48,383 bases of DNA from a virus (taxonomy: Duplodnaviria; Heunggongvirae; Uroviricota; Caudoviricetes). Positions within the stretch are counted from its first letter, which is position 1. Every line of letters starts with the position of its first letter. Below the pieces are notes generated by a model. That model did not search any database, was not told where the DNA came from, and worked only from the letters and a program-made list of their open reading frames with translations. Shown piece by piece: positions 798 to 37,819 of this stretch. The DNA is taken from the IMG/VR virus record IMGVR_UViG_2671180501_000010, one strand, 5' to 3'. The position numbers were made by a program, and so were the translations under genes.

Positions 798-3625
798 TAT
801 GCAAGCCTCACAATATAGTTAAATGCGATGTTTTTGACGGTGTTTTCCGCGTTACCAGCAGCGTTAACGGTGATGGTGTGTCCATGTGAACCAATCGCAA
901 CGGAGTGCGTATGAGCACCAATACCGACAGTATGCGCGTGTGCACCTGCAGATGCTGCTGTGCCGGACAGTGAATGGCTATGATTACCATCTATACTGGT
1001 ATTCGCTAACCACCCCGTAGACATACCTACTGAGCCTTGTACACCCCAGGTATTTTGACCTGAGCTTGTATAACCATATTGATAAGTATCTTTAAAAACA
1101 CTGGGGTTAAATCGACGGCCATCTCTATGGCTGTGATTACCAGCTGCATTCGTGCTGCCACTTAAACTATGGGTATGCGCACCAGTGTTATTCGTGGATT
1201 TAGTGCCGTAATCAAACGACGATGTGGTTTTCGTCCCCAAATCCGTACTGGATGCGCTGGCGCTGTGGGTATGCGATTTAATGCCGTCCTGTTCCTGAGA
1301 CAATACGGCCCGACCACTGGCAGGTTTGCCCTTAATCGTCCAGCCACGCATATCAGGGATCACGCCTGACGGATAAGCCGCTGCAAGTTTCGGGTATGCA
1401 GATTTGTCAAAAGCCTGCCCCTGCATCAGGGCATAGCCAGACGGAACGGTATCTGATGGCCACGGGATTGGTGCGCCAGGCGGATAAAACTGCTCTGATG
1501 GCGTATAGAGTGAATAAACTGTACCGTCCGTTAACCCTTCCGGCTTATTAGCAGAATATGCTGGTGACGTATGAATCGTCACGCTGGCATTACTGGTATA
1601 ATCCCATTGAATATTTACACCAGTCGCATAATTTCCGATTGCAACGTAAATATCGTAAGTATCACCAGATGTATTAACCCAGGCAAAATTTGTAAACCCT
1701 GTCAATGTGCGCTGCCATAAAGCACCAGTAATCCCCTTCGGATTACCATTACCTGCACGTAAAACAAGTTCAGATATACCTGCCTGTTGAGGTGACCCCA
1801 CGTTAAATCCAGCGCCACCAATCAACGTAATTGAAACAACAGAACTCGCCTGTGGCATGGTTACCGTTGCTAATTTGAACCAACCAGCACCACCGCTGAA
1901 TGACATTGTTGTTGAGTTAAGCGTACCAATATCTTTCGGCGTCAGTGTTATATCCGCTGAAAGCGCCTTACCATTCACCTTACGGGCAGAAGGTACCCGA
2001 CCATTCGCATTGTCATTAGCTGCTTTCACTGCTTTCGGTGTCGCAGCAAGCGTTTCAGATGTGCTGTTGGTTGCACTACTGAGCTGGACAATTCCTTTTT
2101 GTGCTGTCGTAGCGTCCTGTGCGGTGTATTTCCCGTTAGCCAGGTCATACGCGGCCTTAACGGCTTTTGGCGTTGCCGCCTGTGACTCGGAAGTGCTGTT
2201 GGTCGCACTGCTGAGCTGTACTATCCCCTTTTTCGTCGTGCTCGCATCCTCAAGCGCCACGGCGGATGCAATATCCTCTGCCCGTTTTGCTGCTGTCTCG
2301 GCGCGCGTTGCCGCGGATTCCGCCGTACTTTTGCTCTGTGCTGCCGCTGCCGCACTGCCAGCAGCCTCTGTCGCCTTCGTGGATGCCGTCGTGGCGCTGC
2401 CCCTCGCTGCTGACGCCTGTCTGGTCGCCTCATCTTTTGAAGCAGACGCAGATGATGCCGATGACGCCGCCGAACTGGCGGACGATGCGGCAGCCGTTTT
2501 TGAGGATTCTGCGCTGGTTTCCGACGCTTTCGCGTTCGTTTCGGATGTCTTCGCTGCGGAAGCAGACCTCGCTGCTGCGCTGGCCTGTTCAGTGGCTTCG
2601 CCAGCCTTCGTTGTGGCTGTTGAAGCGGATGATGCGGCGCTTTCTGCCGATTTTCCGGCGGCGGTGGCACTGACTGCTGCCTCCTCTGCCTTAATGGACG
2701 CCTCACGGGCCGATGATGCAGCTGCTGTCTCAGAGTCTGCCGCAGCTGAGGCGCTCTGTTCCGCTGCCGTTTCAGAAGACTTAGCATTCGTCTCGGACGT
2801 TTTTGCCGCCTTCACGGAATTTCCTGCCGCCGTTGCCGAGGAGGCTGCACTGCTGGCGCTTGTGGAGGCGTTCGTTTCTGATGATTTTGCCGCCTCTTTG
2901 GAGGCCGCCGCATCTCTGGCTGAAGTGGCGGCTTCTGACGCTTTCGTTGTCGCAGTGGATGCAGAAGTGGCTGCTGATTTTTGTGACGCTGCAGCATTCG
3001 TTTCTGACGTTTTCGCCGCACCGGCACTGGTGGCCGCCGCGCTTTTTGAGGACTCTGCAGCGGCAGCACTTTTTGATGCTTCAGTGGCCTTTGTTGATGC
3101 CGTTCCTGCGCTGGAAGACGCCTCCTGAGCCGAAGTCGCGGCCTGTCCGGCTGACGTGCTGGCTGCACGCGCTGAGCCTGCAGCATCAGTCGCATGGGTT
3201 GCCGCCTCACGGGCAGATGTGCCGGCATCACTGGCTGACTTCTTCGCGGCTGCCGTGTTCTGTGCCACCGCGGACGCGTTACGCGCCACCTCTTCCACCA
3301 TCAGTTCAAAACGGCGCAGAGCCTCCGGACGGGCATCATCCTCCGTCATGGCACCGAGAAAATCATTCAGCGTACCGGGTCGGGAATCTTCATACACAGT
3401 GATGGTCCCGGCATGTGACGGCGGGAATCCTTCCACCAACAGAATAACGCTGTACTGACCGTACTCAACGTCCATGCTGTAACGCCCGGCTTCATCCGGA
3501 TTTTCTGAGGCCAGCGTGTTCACCACCACCGTGGTGCTGTTACGTTTTGCTTTCAGCTGGATTGTGCAGTTCTGTACCGGTTTTCCTGTGCCGTCTTTCA
3601 GTACACCTGAAATCTTTACTGCCAT
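797..3625 (-). CDS. stfR: Side tail fibre protein (Stf); long Ala/Ser/Thr-rich repetitive shaft and His-rich C-terminal domain
   Basis: ORF 797-3631; likely ATG at 3625 ([12 protein letters not shown]...) matching lambda Stf N-terminus; central low-complexity repeats; C-terminal GAHTHS/GSHGHT motifs typical of lambda-type Stf. Confidence 0.85.
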
Positions 3626-3634
3626 ATTCACCCC

Positions 3635-3663
3635 ACAAAAAAGCCCGCCTGAACCGGCGGGCT
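3635..3663 (-). terminator. Rho-independent terminator between lom and stf
   Basis: GC-rich 8-bp stem (agcccgcc / ggcgggct, loop tgaacc) followed on the minus strand by a T-run (plus-strand A-run 3637-3641). Confidence 0.5.
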
Positions 3664-3689
3664 GTCATAACACTGTGTTACCTGGCTAA

Positions 3690-4249
3690 TCAGAACTTAT
3701 AACCGACACCCACGATGAAACCGTCAGTGCGCCAGTCGCCACTGCCGGAGCCTTCATAAGCAATATCAATGGCCACGGATTCGGTCGGGTTAAACTGCAC
3801 GCCAGCTCCCCACGCCAGAGACGTGTTGCTGTGGCGACCGTCATCACTTCCGGTCAGCACGTCGTGCGTTTTCCCCTTGTTGTCAGTTACGCGGAGATAA
3901 TCCCCGGAGAAAGTCGACACACGGCTGTAAGCCACACCCGCCATCGCATACGCGCTGAACCATTCATTCACGCGCACAGACGGCCCCGCCATTACGCTGA
4001 ACCAGCGGTTACGAACGGAATCTTCATGCCAGCGGGTATCGCTGTAACGGGTCAGCTGGCGATTCTTGTCTCCTGCATAGCTGAATGACGTCACCAGCCC
4101 CAGCGTATCCGTAAACTCATAACGGTATTTCACGTTAATCCCGTTCAGATCATCACTGCCGGGAACGTTGGTCCGGGCATGAAGATACCCCGCGCTCAGC
4201 GTGGACTGATGTTCAGACGCCCATGCAGGCGCACCGGATACGGCCAGGC
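3690..4249 (-). CDS. lomR: Lom-like outer-membrane beta-barrel protein; 5' end lies in the N-masked run
   Basis: Translation (…LAVSGAPAWASEHQSTLSAGYLHARTNVPGSDDLNGINVKYRYEF…GVGYKF) matches recalled lambda Lom; C-terminal aromatic residue; reading frame continues upstream into Ns starting at 4250. Confidence 0.8.
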
Positions 4250-4676
4250 NNNNNNNNNNNNNNNNNNNNNNNNNNNNNNNNNNNNNNNNNNNNNNNNNNN
4301 NNNNNNNNNNNNNNNNNNNNNNNNNNNNNNNNNNNNNNNNNNNNNNNNNNNNNNNNNNNNNNNNNNNNNNNNNNNNNNNNNNNNNNNNNNNNNNNNNNNN
4401 NNNNNNNNNNNNNNNNNNNNNNNNNNNNNNNNNNNNNNNNNNNNNNNNNNNNNNNNNNNNNNNNNNNNNNNNNNNNNNNNNNNNNNNNNNNNNNNNNNNN
4501 NNNNNNNNNNNNNNNNNNNNNNNNNNNNNNNNNNNNNNNNNNNNNNNNNNNNNNNNNNNNNNNNNNNNNNNNNNNNNNNNNNNNNNNNNNNNNNNNNNNN
4601 NNNNNNNNNNNNNNNNNNNNNNNNNNNNNNNNNNNNNNNNNNNNNNNNNNNNNNNNNNNNNNNNNNNNNNNNNNNN
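4250..4676. other. Run of 427 N (masked or unsequenced bases)
   Basis: Literal n characters; length fits the expected lambda-like J C-terminus, J-lom spacer and lom N-terminus, suggesting masking of real sequence rather than an arbitrary gap. Confidence 0.95.
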
Positions 4677-7600
4677 ATACCGTTAAAAATAATGGGCGGA
4701 ATAATAATCTGGCGGTCAAAGTTATGATCATCGCTGATGGTGACTGTAACCGTACCGTCTGGTGTTTCCGTGTTACCCCACGTACCGACTTTTTTCGGGA
4801 AGGCTTTTGATACAGCTTTAACGAAATCCCCTCTGACCTGGGTCGCCTCCAGCATGCCCTTAATCGTACAGTTCTGGTTAATCGTGACATTGTTGAGCGT
4901 TCCTGAGTTCGCATTCACACTACCACTGATATCCGCATTTTTAGCGGTCAGCTTTCCGTCTGATGTCAGGGAAAATACCGGAGGACTGCCACCGCTGGTA
5001 ATGGCGGGGGCTGTCAGGCGCTTCAGGAACACGTCGTTCATGAATATCTGGTTGCCCTGCGCCACAAACATCGGCGTTTCATTCCCGTTTGCCGGGTCAA
5101 TAAACGCGATACGATTGGCGGCAACCAGAAACTGGCTCAGCTTGCCTTCCTCCGTGTCCTCCATGCTGAGGCCAATACCCGCGACATAATGTTTGCCGTC
5201 TTTGGTCTGCTCAATTTTGACGCCCCACATCGCATTCCATTTATCGTTAGCGTCCTTCCACTCTTTCGAAAACTCATCCAGTCTGCTGGCGTTATCCTCC
5301 GTCAGATCAACTTTTTCCAGCAGCTCTTTACCGAGATGGGATTCGGTTATCTTGCCTTTGAAAAAATCCAGGTAACCTTCCGCATCATCGCTCGCCCGAC
5401 CGACGGCCTCCACGAATGCCGATTTGCCAACGGTGTTCACACTGCGGATATAAAAGTAATAATCATGGCCCGGTTTGATATTGATACTGGCGGCTATCCA
5501 GTACAGCCCCGCGCCAAGGTAGCGGGCTGTGGTTTCAACCTGCCTGATATCGGTAATCCGCGTTTCCGAGAACCAGAACTCAAACTGTACCGTCGGATCA
5601 TAAACCGCAAGATGCGGCGTGGCAGTTATCTGAAAATAGCCCGGCGTCAGCTCAATCCGCGACGGTGCTACCGGTGCGGCAATCCTGAACGATACCGACG
5701 CCGGATCGCCCTGCTGTCCCCAGGCATTTACCGCCCGGACTGTCAGCGTGTACCGTCCCAGCGCCAGTTGCGTGAAGCGGTATGTGGTTTCCGTCGTCCG
5801 GGCCGTGCTGACCAGCCGCTCACTGCCGTCATCCGCTGCCACGGTCAGGCGAAGCATAAAGCTCACCCCCTTCACCACCTTCGGCGTGTCCCAGCGCGCC
5901 AGCACCTGATATTCCCCGCTGTCTGCGGTGACTTCGGCAGTCAGGTGCTGCACCGCTGGCGGCGTGACACCATTCACCGTGCCGCTCTGGTCGCCGTCAA
6001 AGTGCGCCCCGTTATCCACGATGGCTTCTTTTTCCGGTACATGCTGCACGGCAGTGATGGCATACGTGCCGTCATCGTTCTCACGGATACTCACACAGCG
6101 GAACAGGCGCTGGCGCAACGTCGGCAGCTTCAGCCCCCACACGCTGTATTCAGCAACGCCGTCAGGAACACGGCTCACTTTCACCTTCACGCCGTCGGTG
6201 ACGGACTGAACCTCCACGCTGACCGGATTGCCACTTCCGTCAACCAGGCTTATCAGCATGGTACCGGAGGATGGCAGCGTGATTTCACGGTCGAGCGTCA
6301 GCGTCCGGGTCTGGCTGTTTACCGCCAGCACGCGCCCGCCGATGCTGATACCCGCATAGTCATCATCACAGATTTCAATGACATCGCCCGGCACATGGCG
6401 AAGCCCTTCTGCGCCCACGCTGAAGTCCACGGTCTGCGTTTCCAGCAGTTCTGTTTTAATCAGCCACAGCCCGGCGCGGTGTGCCTGCCCCCGGCTGGTA
6501 CAGCCAAAAGCATCCATCTTCGTGACGTTACGACCGTAACGGGCAATGGCCTGCGTATCCTCCACAAGCTCTGTCGCCGTCTCCCAGCCGTTATCCGGGT
6601 CAATCCAGTTCACCTCAACGGCATTATGGCGGTCTTTCAGGGCGCTGAAGCTGTAGCGGAACGGCGCGCCATCATCCGGCATCACCACATTACTGCGGTT
6701 ATAGGTCCACACCTTATCCGACGGTCGGTCCTGCACGAACGTCAGCGTCTGCCCGTTCCATACCGGCATACAGCGCATCGCCGAGCAGAAATCACTGAGC
6801 ACATCCCACGCCTTGCGCTGTGTGGTCAGGTACGCATTACAGGTGATGCGCGGCTCCGTGCCGCCAAAGCCGTCCGGCACTGACTGGTCGCAGTACTGGC
6901 CGATGACATACAGCGCCCATTTGTCCACATCCGCCGCACCAAGACGTTTCCCCATGCCGTAGCGCGGGTGGGTCAGCATATCCCACAGACACCAGGCCAT
7001 GTTGTTGCTGTATGCTGGTTTTAACGTTCCGTCCCAGATACCGCTGTATTGTCGCGTCTGCGGGTTATAGTTCGACGGCACCTGCAGAATGCGCCCGCGA
7101 AGATGATAATTACGACTCACCTGCTGGCTGCCGAACTGCTCCGAGTCCACCTGTACGCCGACCAGTGCAGTGTTCGGGTAGCACTGTTTCACATCGATGA
7201 TTTCGGTGTATGACGACCAGAGCGTTTTGTTCTGCAGCTGGTCTGTGGTGCTGTCCGGTGTCATCCTGCGCATCCGGATACTGAACGGGCGCGGAGGCAG
7301 GTTATCCACCACCACCGAGACCAGATACTGCGAGGTGGTTTTGCCCTTAATGGTGATGTCTTTTTCCGTCACCCAGCCACCGTTACGCTGTATCTGAACC
7401 AGCAGGCGGACTTCCGACGGATTCCTGTCTCCCTTTGAGGTGGTTTCNNNNNNNNNNNNNNNNNNNNNNNNNNNNNNNNNNNNNNNNNNNNNNNNNNNNN
7501 NNNNNNNNNNNNNNNNNNNNNNNNNNNNNNNNNNNNNNNNNNNNNNNNNNNNNNNNNNNNNNNNNNNNNNNNNNNNNNNNNNNNNNNNNNNNNNNNNNNN

Positions 7601-7817
7601 NNNNNNNNNNNNNNNNNNNNNNNNNNNNNNNNNNNNNNNNNNNNNNNNNNNNNNNNNNNNNNNNNNNNNNNNNNNNNNNNNNNNNNNNNNNNNNNCCATC
7701 CACCGGACCTTCAACCGGCCCTTCACTGATGGCATCGATCACACTCAGCAGCTGCGTGGACTTCAGGTTGTCCTTCGCTTCGCGCGGGGTATGCCCCTTA
7801 CTGCTGCCTTTACCCAT
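4677..7817 (-). CDS. J: Host specificity / central tail fibre protein J (tail tip); C-terminal ~95 codons and an internal segment are hidden in N runs
   Basis: Starts [22 protein letters not shown] at 7817; long stretches match recalled lambda gpJ; visible 3' end (…[13 protein letters not shown]) runs into Ns at 4676; internal Ns 7448-7695. Confidence 0.85.
7448..7695. other. Run of 248 N inside J
   Basis: Literal n characters; corresponds to about residues 41-122 of lambda-like J by length. Confidence 0.95.
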
Positions 7818-7877
7818 TCCTCACGCTCCATAAACGACAAAACCGCCCGCAGGCGGTTTCTCATAAAACATTTTGCA

Positions 7878-8525
7878 TCAGCGACCAATCACCACAACCT
7901 GACCACCATCCCCTTCGTCTGCCGTGCTGATCTCCTGAGAAACCACACGTGACCCCACGCGCATTTCCCCGTACAGAACAGGCAGAACATTACCCTGGGC
8001 AACCATGTTATCCAGTGACGAGAAATACGTGTTCTGTTTGCCGTTATCTGTACTGGCTGCCGTGGGCGTCCTGGCTTTCGGTGCCAGCATCTGCGCCACA
8101 CCACCCAGGATCATACTGGCCCCTGCTGCATACATACCCGATACAGCCGCGGCCCCCAGCCAGCCCACAGGGTTCCACCATGCCACCGCAATCAGCGCCG
8201 CACCCAGCACCGCCTGAAACACACCGCCACTTTTGGCACCCGCCAGACGCGGAACGATGTGGATCACGGCACCATTTGCCAGCGGTTCATTAAGACGGGC
8301 AGATAATTCATTTTCGCCTGCATCACGCCCGGCAATGCGCACCTGATACCAGCCGTCGCTCAGTTTCTGACGAAATGCCGGGAGCTGTGTGGCCAGTGCC
8401 CGGATGGCTTCGGCCCCCGTTTTCACACGAAGGTCGATGCGGCGGCCAAATCGCTGCAAATCCCCGTAAAGGCAGATGCGTGCCATGCCCGGTGACGCCA
8501 GAGGGAGTGTGTGCGTCGCTGCCAT
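7878..8525 (-). CDS. I: Tail tip assembly protein I
   Basis: 215-aa ORF starting MAATHTLPLASPGMARICLYGDLQRFGRR, matching recalled lambda gpI. Confidence 0.85.
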   Translation of the reverse strand: MAATHTLPLASPGMARICLYGDLQRFGRRIDLRVKTGAEAIRALATQLPAFRQKLSDGWYQVRIAGRDAGENELSARLNEPLANGAVIHIVPRLAGAKSGGVFQAVLGAALIAVAWWNPVGWLGAAAVSGMYAAGASMILGGVAQMLAPKARTPTAASTDNGKQNTYFSSLDNMVAQGNVLPVLYGEMRVGSRVVSQEISTADEGDGGQVVVIGR

Positions 8526-32675: not shown

Positions 32676-33433
32676 TTCTCAATCTCTCGATGGCGCAGCG
32701 CAGCAGATGCCAGTTGTTCAGGCTGACGAATAAAGTATAAATAAACTGGCTATGGTGTAAAGCCCCACATAGCATGAACAAACACTACATATCAAATAGC
32801 TGGTACAAGGATAGAAATACGACACTTATTATTAAAAACGATTAGATAAATTACATTTTAATGTTATGCAAAAGTTCTTTTTTATCATAACATTTCAATA
32901 AAAGCATTACAGATGCAATCATCCCGTCATCATCAATTATTTAAGGTGGTTAAACATGGAAAATAACAAGTTCGCACATCTCGCTCCTTTTTTATCCGTA
33001 ATCCTTTTCGCTTGTTGTTTTATATGGGCATTATTTTTATAAAGTAGCCACATGATAAGTTGCTGGAATCATATTTCCCACTCAAGTCATTAACATTTGA
33101 TAAGATATATCTAAAAGGACGCCTTTACATTATTTATGCGTATATAATTTATTTATATACACAGTAAAGGTATCCTGGGAAAATATTTATCGTTAAAAAA
33201 TACATCATAAATAATTAAGCTGAAATTTCAGAACACAACTAATACACACAATAAGGTTCAGTAACAGTAATCTATGTGGACTACATCGAGATTTTTTGAT
33301 TAAACTTTAATAACTTATTCCTAACACACAGAATGCATAAACTAAAAGTAAAACAAATAGTTATACGAAAAACAACCATATTTATTCTATCTTCTCCTCT
33401 AATCAACATATCAATTATGTGTTTCATAACAGC

Positions 33434-33466
33434 TTGACATAACCCTCCAAAAGATGCATTTTTAAT
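33434..33466 (+). promoter_or_regulatory. Candidate promoter for the YeaR-like gene (consensus -35, weak -10)
   Basis: Perfect TTGACA at 33434-33439; possible -10-like elements CATTTT / TTTAAT downstream; GGAGGAGG RBS at 33476-33483. Confidence 0.3.
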
Positions 33467-33488
33467 GCATGTTTTGGAGGAGGTGGTT

Positions 33489-33827
33489 ATGACACACAAG
33501 AGAATTCCTAAAGATTGGGTAATCAAACGCTCAACTCCGTTCTTCACAAAAGAGAACGTACCTTCAGCGTTATTAACACATCATAATACAGCAGCAGGTG
33601 TTTTTGGGCAGTTGTGCGTAATGGAAGGCACTGTAACATATTATGGTTTTACTGATGAGAATGCTACTGAACCGGAGATAAAAGTAGTCATTAATGCTGG
33701 CGCTTTTGCAACAAGCCCACCACAATACTGGCACCGTGTTGAACTAAGCGATGATGCTCAGTTTAATATTAACTTTTGGGTCGCTCCAGACTTTTCGGGC
33801 GAAAAAGTCTATAGCACCAAAAAATAG
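33489..33827 (+). CDS. YeaR-like protein (DUF1971; TehB N-terminal-domain-like)
   Basis: ATG 33489 after GGAGGAGG RBS; MTHKRIPKDWVIKRSTPFFTKENVPSALL…GTVTYYGFTDENATEPEIKVVINAGAFATSPPQYWHRVELSDDAQFNINFWVAPD parallels recalled E. coli YeaR. Confidence 0.75.
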   Translation: MTHKRIPKDWVIKRSTPFFTKENVPSALLTHHNTAAGVFGQLCVMEGTVTYYGFTDENATEPEIKVVINAGAFATSPPQYWHRVELSDDAQFNINFWVAPDFSGEKVYSTKK

Positions 33828-33856
33828 ATGATCATATTAAAAATGCTTTAACAGTC

Positions 33857-33895
33857 AGACCCGGCAGGGCTATCCCCGACGGGTCTCATTTTTGT
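33857..33895 (+). terminator. Rho-independent terminator after the YeaR-like gene
   Basis: agacccg…cgggtct imperfect stem with inner GGG/CCC pairing, followed by CATTTTT. Confidence 0.45.
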
Positions 33896-34447
33896 AAATA
33901 TATTGGTTCTACATTGACAGGAGACTTCAACCATAAGAAGTAATCTGAATACTTGAGCAATAAATTTACTTAAGATTAATGAGCGCACCTTGCCGGACAA
34001 AGATAAACCAAGGTAACACCTTTTTTCTAGCCAGTATGTAATCAATCAGAAAGCCGCTCCATAAGAACAACAGCAAGACAATAAATTGCCATTACAGCCG
34101 CAATAGCCAGCGCACATTTGAGAACCAGCACGACAACCCCCTGTATTAGACGCACACCAGTCCTGATAAATATGAGGCTGTCTCGTCAGTGATTCAATAC
34201 AACTATTGGGTATAGTTTCTGTGATTTTATTCTGTAGAAATGGAACACAACAACCAGTCACCACCAGCACTTCCTTAAATGCTCTAAGTCAGAAACAAGC
34301 CAACATTTTAGTCCGCTTTGAGCGATCTGCAGACATTGCTAGCAGCCTTCTGTGTGAATTCTCAGGGAGCAGGTCGGCATAGCATCACGTTGAGGCTCTT
34401 ACCCTACTTGTTCACACCAACCCTAACTCCACAGACTGATTCATAAA

Positions 34448-35449
34448 TTAGTAATCTGCGTGTTTCGCACTTTTCAGAAATGCTTTCATATTTTCATTAG
34501 GTCGCTCAATTTCGAAGTTACTTCCATATAACTCTTGTAATTTTGGCCATAACTTACTTAATAACCCTCTCCTGCGATAAAATGGATGTATCCAAACGGT
34601 AGATAGGTACGGAGAATTTGCATTTGAATTGTTTATTGTGACCAGCCCAACTAAACATTGTCGATAACCACTATTATCCATTGATTGTATTTCTTCGACG
34701 AATGGATACGCGATTACATCAGTCCAACCATGATCGGTTGTATCCCATTGCATTCCGTCATGACATTCCTTCGACTGATAGCGGCGTAAAGCTACACACG
34801 CGAGCTTTTGCCAATCTGGAGAATTAATTGTGATCTCTTCATCGTATGACGCGCCTATTGGAGCGGGTATTGGTCTGATTAATCCAGCATGGCATTCATC
34901 ATAGAACTTCATGTTTCCCTCAGAAACGTTGTGTACGTTGGGTTGCTCCATGTGTGCGCCATTCAAAAATAGCTCTGATAGTAGTGTATCTACACTGTAA
35001 TCTTTATTGATTATTGTCGGCTTAGAGTTTTTCTTATTAAGGCCGCGAGTAACGATTTTTTGATCAATGTTAACAACATGGAATAATCCGTCGGGGAGGC
35101 TAGCGAACCACGATGGGGCATCGGACCAGAATAGCATGCCTTTTGTACTTCTTAAGAGTTTAATTAAGTTAATACAAGCTTCTTCACTAGTCTTGCCGTT
35201 GATGCGAAGTATGTTAGGACTAAAGTAATATTCATCCATATCAGGGAATGCAGCTTCGCAAAACTCCTGTACATAATTTAGCACCTGGATTCTACAGAGA
35301 TCATCATAGCTGGTAATAACTAAGGGGGTATCTTCATTACTATTATGATTATCAATAATGCAATCTATAGCGAGACTTACTGCTTTGCGTATCACTTCAG
35401 TTGAATCTAACGACTCTAAAAATTTTGTCTTTCGTGTGCGAATATCCAT
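34448..35449 (-). CDS. Hypothetical protein (333 aa) with GNAT-acetyltransferase-like C-terminal region; second gene of a two-gene cargo operon
   Basis: ATG 35449 lies 15 nt after the stop of the upstream gene; C-terminal YLSTVWIHPFYRRRGLLSKLW resembles GNAT motif A; N-terminal 230 aa unassigned; about 35% GC. Confidence 0.7.
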   Translation of the reverse strand: MDIRTRKTKFLESLDSTEVIRKAVSLAIDCIIDNHNSNEDTPLVITSYDDLCRIQVLNYVQEFCEAAFPDMDEYYFSPNILRINGKTSEEACINLIKLLRSTKGMLFWSDAPSWFASLPDGLFHVVNIDQKIVTRGLNKKNSKPTIINKDYSVDTLLSELFLNGAHMEQPNVHNVSEGNMKFYDECHAGLIRPIPAPIGASYDEEITINSPDWQKLACVALRRYQSKECHDGMQWDTTDHGWTDVIAYPFVEEIQSMDNSGYRQCLVGLVTINNSNANSPYLSTVWIHPFYRRRGLLSKLWPKLQELYGSNFEIERPNENMKAFLKSAKHADY

Positions 35450-35464
35450 GTATGACCTGCGCTA

Positions 35465-36487
35465 TTAAAATTCATGAATGAACGGTTTGTCATCTGGTTG
35501 CAAAATGGTGGTTTTATTCGTTGCTACATTTAAACTGTTGTAGAGCATAATTGCCAGGTTCGATGCATTTTCAATCAGCGTTTCAAGATCCTGGTCTGTA
35601 ATCACTACGAGGTTCCCTTCTTTATCCTTTCCACCACGATGCACTAAGTGATTTCGATTGAGGGTTGCCAATTCAATAGCTTCTATCGGACAGTCTTTTT
35701 GTACTTTTATATCGAATGTAGCTTCATAGCGGTCGATTACCTTTTTAGTGCTATGCCAGCTTGCACTGATCAAGTGTTCCTTGATTGACCTGATTAGCTC
35801 TCCCCTAATTTTCTCGATGGGTTCACCCTTGAAAGGCAACGCAGCAATATCTTTGCTTACTTTAAATTCAGTCTTACCTTTTTCTATACAATTGGCTATG
35901 TAGACATCATCTTTCTCTATAGAATTAATGAATAGCTCAACATAAAGCGTTTCCAAAGCTGTAATAACATTCGTGTAGAGCAAACTAAGCAAGTGGTTTT
36001 TTTGCTGTTGTTCAGTTTTATCTTTTGCAAGTTTTTTTATTTTATCGATATTATCAATGAATTTTAAATACGGATTACCGGAAGACGTTACAGCGTCGTA
36101 GATATCATCATCGTACCAATCATCTATATTATTTGAGTTTCCAGACCAGTCAAAACATTGTGTTTGTAATTCATCTACTAATTCCTCAATATACTCAGAT
36201 TTAACATATTGACCGAAGATGGATTGTAGTTCTTCGCTCGCATCATACGGCCCGCCATATATGTAAGCATAGCCACCTTCTCTACTTTCATACGGACAAG
36301 CATTTGCCGGATCTTCAAAGTTTTCAAAGAACCAGTTTTTCATTACTTCGAGTTGATCTTTTTTGCTTATGTATTTTAAAGATTTTAGTGGAACTTTCTT
36401 TCCATTAACCTCGAAAACAATTTTCACGATGTAACGCTCCCTTGTATCAATTGCGCAACTATTATACCACAGCGAAATACAGGGCAT
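35465..36487 (-). CDS. Hypothetical protein (340 aa) with C-terminal R-N-x3-H (HEPN-like) motif; first gene of a two-gene cargo operon
   Basis: ATG 36487 preceded by AAGGAGG RBS (track ORF extends to 36556 but lacks an RBS); motif LNRNHLVHRGG at residues 277-287; AT-rich; candidate TTGACA -35 upstream. Confidence 0.7.
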   Translation of the reverse strand: MPCISLWYNSCAIDTRERYIVKIVFEVNGKKVPLKSLKYISKKDQLEVMKNWFFENFEDPANACPYESREGGYAYIYGGPYDASEELQSIFGQYVKSEYIEELVDELQTQCFDWSGNSNNIDDWYDDDIYDAVTSSGNPYLKFIDNIDKIKKLAKDKTEQQQKNHLLSLLYTNVITALETLYVELFINSIEKDDVYIANCIEKGKTEFKVSKDIAALPFKGEPIEKIRGELIRSIKEHLISASWHSTKKVIDRYEATFDIKVQKDCPIEAIELATLNRNHLVHRGGKDKEGNLVVITDQDLETLIENASNLAIMLYNSLNVATNKTTILQPDDKPFIHEF

Positions 36488-36625
36488 AACCTGCCTCCTT
36501 AAACTAACATACCATGAGCCAGCAATGTCCGCTATTGGCACAAAGCGGACAACCACGCTAGCTCTCCCCTGTGCCAGAAAAATGTCAATTTACATATGAA
36601 CTAATGCTCTTTGATCTAGTAACGT

Positions 36626-37042
36626 CTATAAATACCGAAGATTTCCTTGATAAAATGCCAGTACACGTTTCATAACTTCACTCTTCCGGCACTCGCGACA
36701 GATTATGTTCTGACGCCTGTCATAGCGGCGTATTTCTCCGTCTGGTAATGACCAGATAAGGTCAGGATCAACCACAACCGTTTTTTTCACCTTTGCCCTG
36801 GATAGTTTTTTGCGGGCGTTTTTCCAATCCTTACGAGCCTGTTCAGACGGGAATAACCCATAGCCAGAGTTGTATACATCGCCACTGGCAACCAACTCTC
36901 TGGCAAGAATGCTCATCAGATATCTTGTCGCACCTGTCTTGGCCTCCAGTTGCCTTAACGTCTCGCGCCCACTCTGGCGTACCAACTCAACAACCTGCTC
37001 CTTAATTTTTTCACGCTCTTCCTGTGTAAAAACTTTTGCCAT
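36626..37042 (-). CDS. Hypothetical protein (138 aa)
   Basis: ORF 36626-37057; ATG 37042 (MAKVFTQEE…) preceded by GGAGGCG; basic C-terminal half with a CRECRK motif. Confidence 0.6.
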   Translation of the reverse strand: MAKVFTQEEREKIKEQVVELVRQSGRETLRQLEAKTGATRYLMSILARELVASGDVYNSGYGLFPSEQARKDWKNARKKLSRAKVKKTVVVDPDLIWSLPDGEIRRYDRRQNIICRECRKSEVMKRVLAFYQGNLRYL

Positions 37043-37057
37043 AAGCGCCTCCGGCAA

Positions 37058-37819
37058 TCACTTTTCCGACACAATACGACTGGAGGAATCGACAATCTGT
37101 CGGACAATATCCCGGTGCTTGTTCAGCTCCCGCAGCGCGGCGCAGACTCGCTCCCACTTCTGGACATGATTTTTCGCCCGACGCAGTTCGCGGTTTGCCA
37201 TATGCAGCGATGGTAAAACTAGGTCATCCGCTTGCGTTTCAGTAAACGATGGCAGCGACTGCACAATGTCCGCCACAGTTTCTGTTTTAATATCTTCCTG
37301 TGTTGCCGCTTCCTGTACTGGTAACGCAACACCGGCTGGCTGAGGAAAGGCTTTACCATCAGTTTCCGCTACCGATGCAGCTTTCGGCTCTGCTGGTAAA
37401 TTATCGCCCGGCATGCAGTAACGAAATTTACTGTTCTGGTTTACGCGAATCAGGCGTCCTTTGCTGATTGCCATTGCCAGCGTTGAAGCAACTTTGCGGG
37501 ATGTTGTACCGAACAGCGTAGCCAGTTCATCCGCCGTTTGTGGTCCGCGTTGTTCAATCGTCGCGGTTAAATCGCACTCTGAGATTTTCACTACAGTTGC
37601 CGTGGTGGTTTCTTCCGGCAGTTCTGCCTGCATTGGCTGTTCCTGCTGAACGTTGTTATCAGCCACACGCCAGGTGTACGCGCTTTTATCAACGAAACCA
37701 GCTTTTTTCAGTTCCCATAGTTCGTTCAGCACTTCTTCACGACTGATATCAAGTCGCGCAGCAAGTTCTATGGATGTGGCTTTTCCCATTGCTTTCAGTG
37801 CGTCAAAAACAGTCTCCAT
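37058..37819 (-). CDS. ydaW: YdaW-like DNA-binding protein (full length)
   Basis: ATG 37819 ([13 protein letters not shown]…) with GGGAGGAAA RBS; winged-helix-like N-terminus; position after the DnaC-like gene as in Rac, where K-12 ydaW is a fragment. Confidence 0.6.

Follow-up and report, generated by a model that had tools for sequence, protein, structure and literature searches.

What do two genes do that lie side by side in an Escherichia coli prophage, one encoding a protein of the HEPN type and the other a protein whose C-terminus resembles the GNAT acetyltransferases? The question is raised by positions 34448-35449 of the viral record IMGVR_UViG_2671180501_000010 (Caudoviricetes), whose whole stretch of 48,383 nucleotides (nt) was analysed and is called the window here; its identity is that of an E. 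coli Rac-like/lambdoid prophage. An initial annotation, made from the letters alone, had placed at this position a 333-amino-acid (aa) protein coupled to a HEPN-like gene and had considered that both could be an effector/regulator pair. The analysis presented here points to a conflict module in which a HEPN effector has an unprecedented partner of the GNAT fold; the pair matches no described system, and the cassette formed by the two genes is probably a new candidate phage-defence module and not a toxin-antitoxin pair. In the form that we favour, with about even confidence and on the basis of sequence comparisons, it would be a two-gene anti-phage module composed of a self-sufficient HEPN RNase effector and a co-expressed accessory GNAT-fold acyltransferase. 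The elements on which the argument draws are the following.

34311..36550, minus strand: whole mobile cassette of 2240 base pairs (bp), delimited by blastn of the region against fetched loci
36527..36550, minus strand: 5' site 'A', GTCCGCTTTGTGCCAATAGCGGAC, with 6-bp arms around a 12-nt centre and ATTGCT on its inner side; left edge of the conserved block
36461..36469, minus strand: possible extended -10 element TGgTATAAT, ~35 nt upstream of the HEPN start, from direct reading of the sequence
35465..36427, minus strand: HEPN gene, 320 aa, GTG start (RefSeq WP_014639476.1)
35636..35656, minus strand: HEPN catalytic motif R258-N-H-L-V-H263-R264 (R-x4-H), codons read directly
35450..35464, minus strand: intergenic spacer of 15 nt, tagcgcaggtcatac, between TAA and ATG, with a weak AGG ribosome-binding site
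34448..35449, minus strand: GNAT-like gene, 333 aa, ATG start, from the list of open reading frames (ORFs)
34880..35449, minus strand: N-terminal domain of the 333-aa protein, residues 1-~190, alpha/beta three-layer, no assigned family
34451..34852, minus strand: C-terminal GNAT-fold domain, residues ~200-333, with the signature W286-x-H288-P-F-x-R292
34311..34334, minus strand: 3' site 'B', GTCTGCAGATCGCTCAAAGCGGAC, with AGCAAT on its inner side; right edge of the conserved block

At the level of gene structure, the 333-aa ORF was confirmed as annotated, and it contains the string YLSTVWIHPFYRRRGLLSKLWPKLQELYG quoted for it; an identical protein is deposited in RefSeq as WP_000354966.1 under the name 'hypothetical protein'. 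The upstream gene ends at 35465 on the same strand, which makes the 15-nt gap exact. Its likely start is the GTG at 36427, with an AGGGAG Shine-Dalgarno sequence; the start of the longest ORF at 36556 is less likely, because the homologues begin at an aligned MKIVF. A scan of the spacer for promoter-like and terminator-like sites revealed none, and the short spacing and shared orientation fit the co-transcription that had been proposed. The TGgTATAAT sequence is a possible promoter element for the HEPN gene; it was not listed by a consensus promoter scan, a good -35 sequence is absent, and the HEPN-deletion derivatives of the L004 type described below retain it as TGGTACAAT. Ratios of non-synonymous to synonymous substitution (dN/dS) of 0.20-0.42 for the GNAT-like gene and 0.12-0.21 for the HEPN gene indicate that both are under purifying selection and are, therefore, real genes. 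A Rfam scan of positions 33000-37200 produced nothing relevant.

The assignment of the upstream neighbour to the HEPN proteins also held up. Judging from its sequence and that of its relatives, the 320-aa product is a genuine HEPN protein with a HEPN/RES-NTD1 N-terminal domain followed by a RiboL-PSP-type HEPN domain. Its own match to PF18870 (HEPN/RES-NTD1) is weak (E=1.9e-4) and it has no match to PF18735 (RiboL-PSP-HEPN) at E<=1; among its 29 relatives, PF18870 is found in 21 and PF18735 in 10. All 29 homologues aligned, the most distant at 27% identity, share residues R258, H263 and R264 of the catalytic motif without exception. Searches of PADLOC-DB 2.0.0 with this protein gave chance-level matches only (E>=0.011). 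The combination of both domains is tabulated in the 2013 survey of HEPN proteins (Anantharaman et al. 2013, PMC3710099), whose entries for the MAE_18760/RiboL-PSP-type HEPN family give fusions and a ParA/Soj operon. With the proteins of this architecture, predicted to be RNases of conflict systems, the upstream gene shares the combination of PF18870 plus PF18735 and the invariant R-x4-H. No experimentally tested member of the RES-NTD1/RiboL-PSP-type HEPN family was found in the literature searched.

For the 333-aa protein, the GNAT-like C-terminus that had been proposed is borne out in its fold but not in its size, since the domain occupies ~130 residues (~200-333) and not 90, leaving an unassigned N-terminal part of ~190 residues instead of 230. 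In the structural model, the C-terminal domain has the GNAT core fold, with a mixed sheet and the beta4-alpha3-beta5 cofactor cradle. The sequence evidence for GNAT membership is marginal: Pfam Acetyltransf_1 (PF00583) matches residues 264-311 at E=9e-4 with 19.9 bits (gathering score, 20.7 bits), 16 of 41 family members match it at E<=0.01 with a best value of 6e-6, and the best NCBIfam match of the 333-aa protein, at E=0.048, yields no assignment. An exhaustive profile search with the GNAT-like family retrieved 468 proteins at E<=0.001, only ~12 of them full-length (~330-aa) cluster representatives; standalone proteins of ~150-200 aa match profile positions ~180-330 at E values from 1e-71 to 1e-20, and most of the weaker matches listed span positions ~277-330 alone. 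A joint alignment of the 333-aa and the standalone C-domain architectures leaves S210, W213, Y224, W242, W286, H288, P289, F290, R292 and M321 invariant. The W-x-H-P-F-x-R signature, located at the end of strand beta4, is conserved in both architectures down to ~30% identity, as would be expected of a working site, and in the model it would fall at the beta4/alpha3 junction, where GNATs bind their cofactor. A sequence search of PDB with the family profile produced a single chance match, to a radical SAM protein (E=0.029), PADLOC-DB 2.0.0 holds no family for the GNAT-like protein, and the sole matches in PHROGs are the 'unknown function' families phrog_16994 and phrog_17908. The phage GenBank collection gave no protein-level match to the 333-aa protein; IMG/VR prophage contigs do carry it.

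How constant the association of the two genes is was surveyed by tblastn with both proteins over ~90 loci from genomes, metagenomes, viral contigs and plasmids, the counts covering intact GNAT-like genes with enough upstream sequence to test. Among GNAT-like relatives of at least 73% identity (73-100%), a HEPN gene or its remnant lies upstream in 46 of 46; the gene is adjacent in 42, with a gap of 14-15 nt in 40, and the other four keep a remnant only, so that the co-occurrence of both genes across genomes was corroborated within this range. Almost every paired locus has the 14-15 nt gap, to a GNAT-like identity as low as 78%, and the identity of the HEPN protein declines in step with that of its neighbour, from 100% to 84%. 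Outside this prophage the pair is carried by a Serratia grimesii island, beside McrBC-like genes, by an Aeromonas caviae mobile element with relaxase and SIR2+cREC genes and by a Citrobacter IncFIB plasmid, and a Providencia plasmid carries it with a truncated HEPN gene. In complete E. coli genomes each gene is found in 209 of 5426 (~4%), the carriers including APEC O1, S88 and the type strain ATCC 11775. At GNAT-like identities of 62% or less, a HEPN neighbour is absent in all ~13 loci with enough upstream sequence. The pair is, by this pattern, a stable and co-inherited unit within one lineage, and neither gene requires the other for its maintenance.

Each gene is, in fact, also found without the other. 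HEPN homologues at 72-77% identity are solo genes (single-gene insertions): one adjoins sucCD, another a ParE/HTH pair in Dickeya, and a third is located in a P4-like satellite of E. coli. In the four HEPN-less loci of the survey (GNAT-like identity 86%), the 5' end of the cassette is joined to the last 35-64 nt of HEPN, with one junction shared by loci L004, L040 and L087 and another in L088, and the GNAT-like ORF is intact. The two junctions mark two independent deletions of the HEPN gene, both of which spared the GNAT-like ORF. The derivatives occur in four different contexts, and dN/dS of the GNAT-like gene within this group is 0.04-0.06, from few substitutions. In E. coli SF-173, a single strain, IS1 lies inside the GNAT-like gene and the adjacent HEPN gene is intact, its product being identical to WP_014639476.1. 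The HEPN gene is truncated in L022 and L075 and reduced to less than 80% of its length in 4 of the 209 E. coli genomes. These comparisons make an obligate toxin-antitoxin pair unlikely, because each gene occurs alone, HEPN was deleted twice and IS1 interrupts the GNAT-like gene beside an intact HEPN gene. From the effector/regulator proposal, what stands is the co-occurrence in other genera, the constant gap and the co-divergence; a family-wide obligate couple was not sustained, given the ~13 distant homologues lacking HEPN, the solo HEPN genes, the two deletions and the IS1 insertion.

As a separate observation, insertion sequences have entered the cassette repeatedly, in L106 (E. coli SF-173), L107 (E. 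coli O78 strain 3) and L108 (E. coli MB56). The sites are the IS1 in the GNAT-like gene, an IS2 upstream of HEPN and two ISSen4 copies flanking HEPN, one of which changes the start of the GNAT-like gene.

The limits of the unit that is inherited were defined by blastn, in which homology begins and ends at 36550 and 34311 in at least 10 different flanking contexts. The 2240-bp block is present with identical ends in the Rac-like prophage, the Serratia island, the Aeromonas element, the IncFIB plasmid and the Providencia plasmid, and its order is 5' palindromic site, promoter region, HEPN, 15-nt spacer, GNAT-like gene, 3' untranslated region and 3' palindromic site. Site A fits GTCCGC-N12-GCGGAC exactly and site B with one mismatch; both sites jointly form the longest inverted repeat of the region, and they are distinguished by their centres, TGTGCCA in A and CGCTCA in B. 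When viral contigs were scanned for site A, at least 120 loci (L109-L228) were identified, where it precedes at least 41 unrelated first ORFs and, in the viral loci listed, is usually followed by a B site 0.5-4 kb downstream; sites were also found in L024, L035, L037, L039, L042, L043 and L087. Islands and plasmids contain arrays of the form [A-genes-B]-15 to 18 nt-[A-genes-B], in which the spacer is conserved. Copies of a 1032-bp cassette in two different prophage backbones are 99.7% identical; of their three differences, two fall within the outermost 8 nt of A and 5 nt of B and agree with the respective backbone, so that exchange takes place inside both sites.

These ends recall integron gene cassettes. 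An integron cassette has a single 3' attC site with RYYYAAC/GTTRRRY core sites and a G|TT crossover, and an IntI integrase is encoded at the array. Like them, the cassettes described here have defined cargo ends and imperfect palindromes; the B-(15-18 nt)-A junctions are attC-like imperfect palindromes, and AAC/AAT is often found before B and GTT/ATT after A, as at integron attC sites. They differ in that a palindromic site stands at both cassette ends and the exchange points lie inside both sites; no integron integrase was seen, though no search aimed at one was made. No description of the A/B sequences was found in the literature searched; they may be recombinase targets, attC-like elements or linkers conserved for homologous exchange. 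The boundary palindromes were also considered as inverted repeats of an IS5-family element that adjoins the cassette in a Citrobacter plasmid; this was rejected, as the ends of that element are different (GGCTGTGTCCCTTAAT...), its target is CTAG, and it has merely entered the spacer that separates a B site from an A site.

In Rac-like prophages the cassette occupies a slot between the DUF977 and DUF1971 genes, with flanks at ~36551-36580 and ~34280-34310. Among the matches listed, the same flanks enclose alternatives of 1032, 1198, 1490, 1717, 1731, 1892, 1965, 2104, 2513 and 2680 bp in place of the 2240 bp. The cargo of A-site cassettes in other prophage contigs, again among the matches listed, includes proteins matching PD-T7-3 (E=6e-98) and PDC-S33 (E=5e-119), a TIR protein, a trypsin-like effector and an HNH-AAA protein. 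Since cassettes of the same type carry these genes elsewhere, the HEPN/GNAT-like cassette is placed by sequence among known and candidate defence genes, and the slot looks like a defence hotspot of lambdoid prophages. The P2/P4 prophage and satellite hotspots (Rousset et al. 2022, PMC9122126) are similar in their fixed backbone position and alternative cargo, much of it for defence.

Taking these observations together, it is proposed that the cassette acts as an anti-phage module of the abortive-infection type within a variable, defence-rich slot of Rac-like/lambdoid prophages. The HEPN/RES-NTD1 domain would hold the RNase domain off until infection, upon which the HEPN protein would cut RNA through its invariant R-x4-H site. 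The effector may be able to act alone, given that some of its close relatives are single genes. The 333-aa protein would be an accessory enzyme, co-transcribed and possibly translationally coupled, in which the novel N-terminal binding domain would present or select a target for the divergent GNAT-fold acyltransferase domain. Candidates for the acylated target are proteins or RNAs important in infection, among them the effector, the substrate of the effector and phage factors; acylation of such a target would tune or broaden the response, a role different from that of a classical antitoxin. The defence function, the activation of HEPN, the acyl transfer and its target are what we infer from gene structure, folds, motif conservation, cassette boundaries, co-inheritance and location.

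Several observations weigh against this proposal. Location in the slot is guilt by association, and the A-site cargo among the matches listed also includes a NUDIX-like protein, a glyoxalase-like protein and MarR, none of which looks like a defence gene. The 209 E. coli genomes amount essentially to one observation, because the copies are at least 99% identical in all but one of them. In the sequences surveyed, only one clade shows the pairing; elsewhere the GNAT-like gene is often solo, with unremarkable neighbours such as housekeeping genes or a prophage-like region, and the standalone C-domain homologues have heterogeneous, uninformative contexts. Because the pairing is so limited and the gene so often solo, the GNAT-like protein may act independently of HEPN. 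Neither protein gave a match or a homologue of tested function in PADLOC, NCBIfam, the PDB sequence search or the literature. In the latter, no HEPN plus GNAT system was found described and neither RefSeq accession was found, in agreement with the initial view that the pairing is unlike known defence or toxin-antitoxin systems. Within the GNAT-like domain, the cofactor loop R292-R-R-G295-L-L is degenerate with respect to Q/R-x-x-G-x-G/A: R292 is invariant, G295 is replaced by R, Q or E in several members and the last position is L, M or I. In addition, the model of the domain stops after helix alpha4 and the usual C-terminal strands are absent. Catalysis is not assured, because of this degenerate acetyl-CoA loop and the missing strands.

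The last two features could also be explained by a catalytically dead protein, in which the binding domain and a degenerate GNAT would serve as a scaffold or sensor for ligands or proteins. A Pfam score below threshold and the lack of a detectable sequence relative in PDB fit this idea; we consider it very improbable, as the W-x-H-P-F-x-R signature is kept invariant at the beta4/alpha3 junction across two architectures and to ~30% identity, and as the profile is matched by 468 proteins, the listed weaker ones mostly over ~277-330 only. More plausible, and in our view possible if tentative, is that the cassette merely houses two independent single-gene functions, a self-contained HEPN defence or toxin gene and a stand-alone GNAT-like passenger involved in defence, counter-defence or metabolism. 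The solo HEPN homologues, the more distant GNAT-like homologues that never have a HEPN neighbour (several of them without any tight neighbour) and the spread of HEPN-deleted derivatives under low dN/dS would all be accounted for. An A-like site is found upstream of the solo Dickeya HEPN gene and B-like sites adjoin distant solo GNAT-like genes, which fits the fusion of two cassettes. What such independence leaves unexplained is that the 14-15 nt gap, with neither promoter nor terminator, was kept over ~25% protein divergence, and that GNAT-like genes show operon-like spacing (-4, 2, 14, 15 and 43-45 nt) with several defence genes, more than would be predicted for an unrelated passenger.

A different relation between both proteins is conceivable by analogy with type VII toxin-antitoxin systems. 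HEPN RNases are common toxins, and in HepT/MntA a neighbouring transferase chemically modifies the toxin. Following that precedent, the GNAT-fold protein might neutralise the HEPN RNase by acylation, the toxin being released if the modification is lost upon infection or when the plasmid is lost. Both systems are mobile two-gene operons in which a HEPN RNase gene lies beside the gene for a transferase-fold enzyme, small in HepT/MntA, with a possible analogy in the control of HEPN by covalent modification; the present pair resides on plasmids, prophages and islands, and its natural lesions are mostly in HEPN, as expected if the toxin were the costly partner. The differences are substantial: the partner is a minimal nucleotidyltransferase in HepT/MntA and a GNAT here, the HEPN family is another one, the toxin-first gene order is the reverse, and each gene of the present cassette survives without the other. 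Co-occurrence across both families was not seen, the pairing being found only at GNAT-like identities of at least 73%, and the presumed toxin is kept intact without its antitoxin in SF-173 (a single strain) and in the partnerless HEPN relatives at 72-77% identity. The GNAT-like family is, moreover, mostly unlinked to HEPN and also found beside SIR2, HerA and AAA_13 genes. This enzymatic-antitoxin alternative is hence regarded as unlikely, and a classical toxin-antitoxin system was discarded as main model on account of the solo HEPN homologues, the two HEPN deletions and the IS1-disrupted GNAT-like gene beside an intact HEPN gene. The acetyltransferase toxins TacT, AtaT, ItaT and KacT have ~170 aa and are paired with a small RHH/DUF1778 antitoxin. 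They share with the 333-aa protein the GNAT fold and the residence on mobile elements in conflict-system contexts, and differ from it in several respects, since here the RHH/DUF1778 antitoxin is absent, the protein has an extra 190-aa domain, no similarity to a PDB chain was found by sequence, and the GNAT-like gene is stably kept alone.

The proposed anti-phage module with an accessory acyltransferase also draws support from the company kept by GNAT-like relatives elsewhere. In marine or environmental Gammaproteobacteria (L231 1598-6607, L062 and L012), a homologue of ~40% identity belongs to a SIR2_2 - HerA - GNAT-like - SIR2-like operon, where its start overlaps the HerA stop by 4 nt and a 504-aa SIR2-like protein is encoded 14 nt downstream. 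In L058 2387-3670 and L059 5049-7313, a homologue of 46% identity is followed after 43 nt by a gene for a 754-aa AAA_13 protein, which matches PDC-S06 (E=2e-137) and, at a lower level, PrrC; in L058 this pair is preceded by a B-type site. A conserved 273-aa Cys-rich protein, with no match in Pfam or PADLOC, is encoded 44-45 nt behind two different GNAT-like homologues (L011 7051-7872 and L060 3199-4020), another homologue lies 2 nt upstream of a YunG-like protein, and yet another in an island with AbiC and an SRA-HNH protein. It might be that the 333-aa family comprises portable acylating accessory enzymes of immunity, whose N-domain docks on effectors or their targets (the HEPN RNase, SIR2-HerA, AAA_13/PrrC-like proteins) and whose GNAT domain acylates, an extension that we hold to be doubtful. 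On the Cupriavidus plasmid p352-2 (L023 4935-5432), a distance of 1.6 kb separates a standalone 165-aa C-domain homologue (30% identity) from a DUF4145 (HEPN-family) gene, which is on the opposite strand; an HNH endonuclease and Ku are encoded in the same region. The proximity of DUF4145 is possibly a coincidence.

The remainder of the window places the cassette within the prophage.

First 30 kb of the window: structural and lysis genes
31.2-32.7 kb: Q-like, DUF1364 and NinB-like (DUF1367) genes
37-39.5 kb: replication genes
43-46 kb: recE/recT

Just beyond the cassette, the DUF1971 (TehB-like) gene at 33465-33827, on the opposite (plus) strand, is probably a further accessory gene of the prophage; the guanine-cytosine (GC) content of 33001-34000 is low, at 0.345. 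In the tail-fibre/host-specificity region, at 2001-8000, consecutive 1-kb segments have GC contents of 0.59, 0.58, 0.30, 0.57, 0.60 and 0.42, and the AT skew is -0.42 at 2001-3000. Such swings suggest that this segment is a mosaic or was exchanged recently.

If the cassette protects against phages, it would add to the known repertoire a two-gene system carried by ~4% of complete E. coli genomes, and with it a new protein family that joins a novel domain to a divergent GNAT. That the GNAT-like family recurs in unrelated defence operons is a hint that acylation may serve immunity as a regulatory or effector chemistry. Should the family indeed consist of portable acylating enzymes, this would add an undescribed acetylation-type layer of control to phage defence, the acyl-transfer counterpart of the control by AMPylation in HepT/MntA. 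The palindrome-bounded cassettes themselves offer a testable handle on the exchange of defence genes among lambdoid prophages, plasmids and islands.

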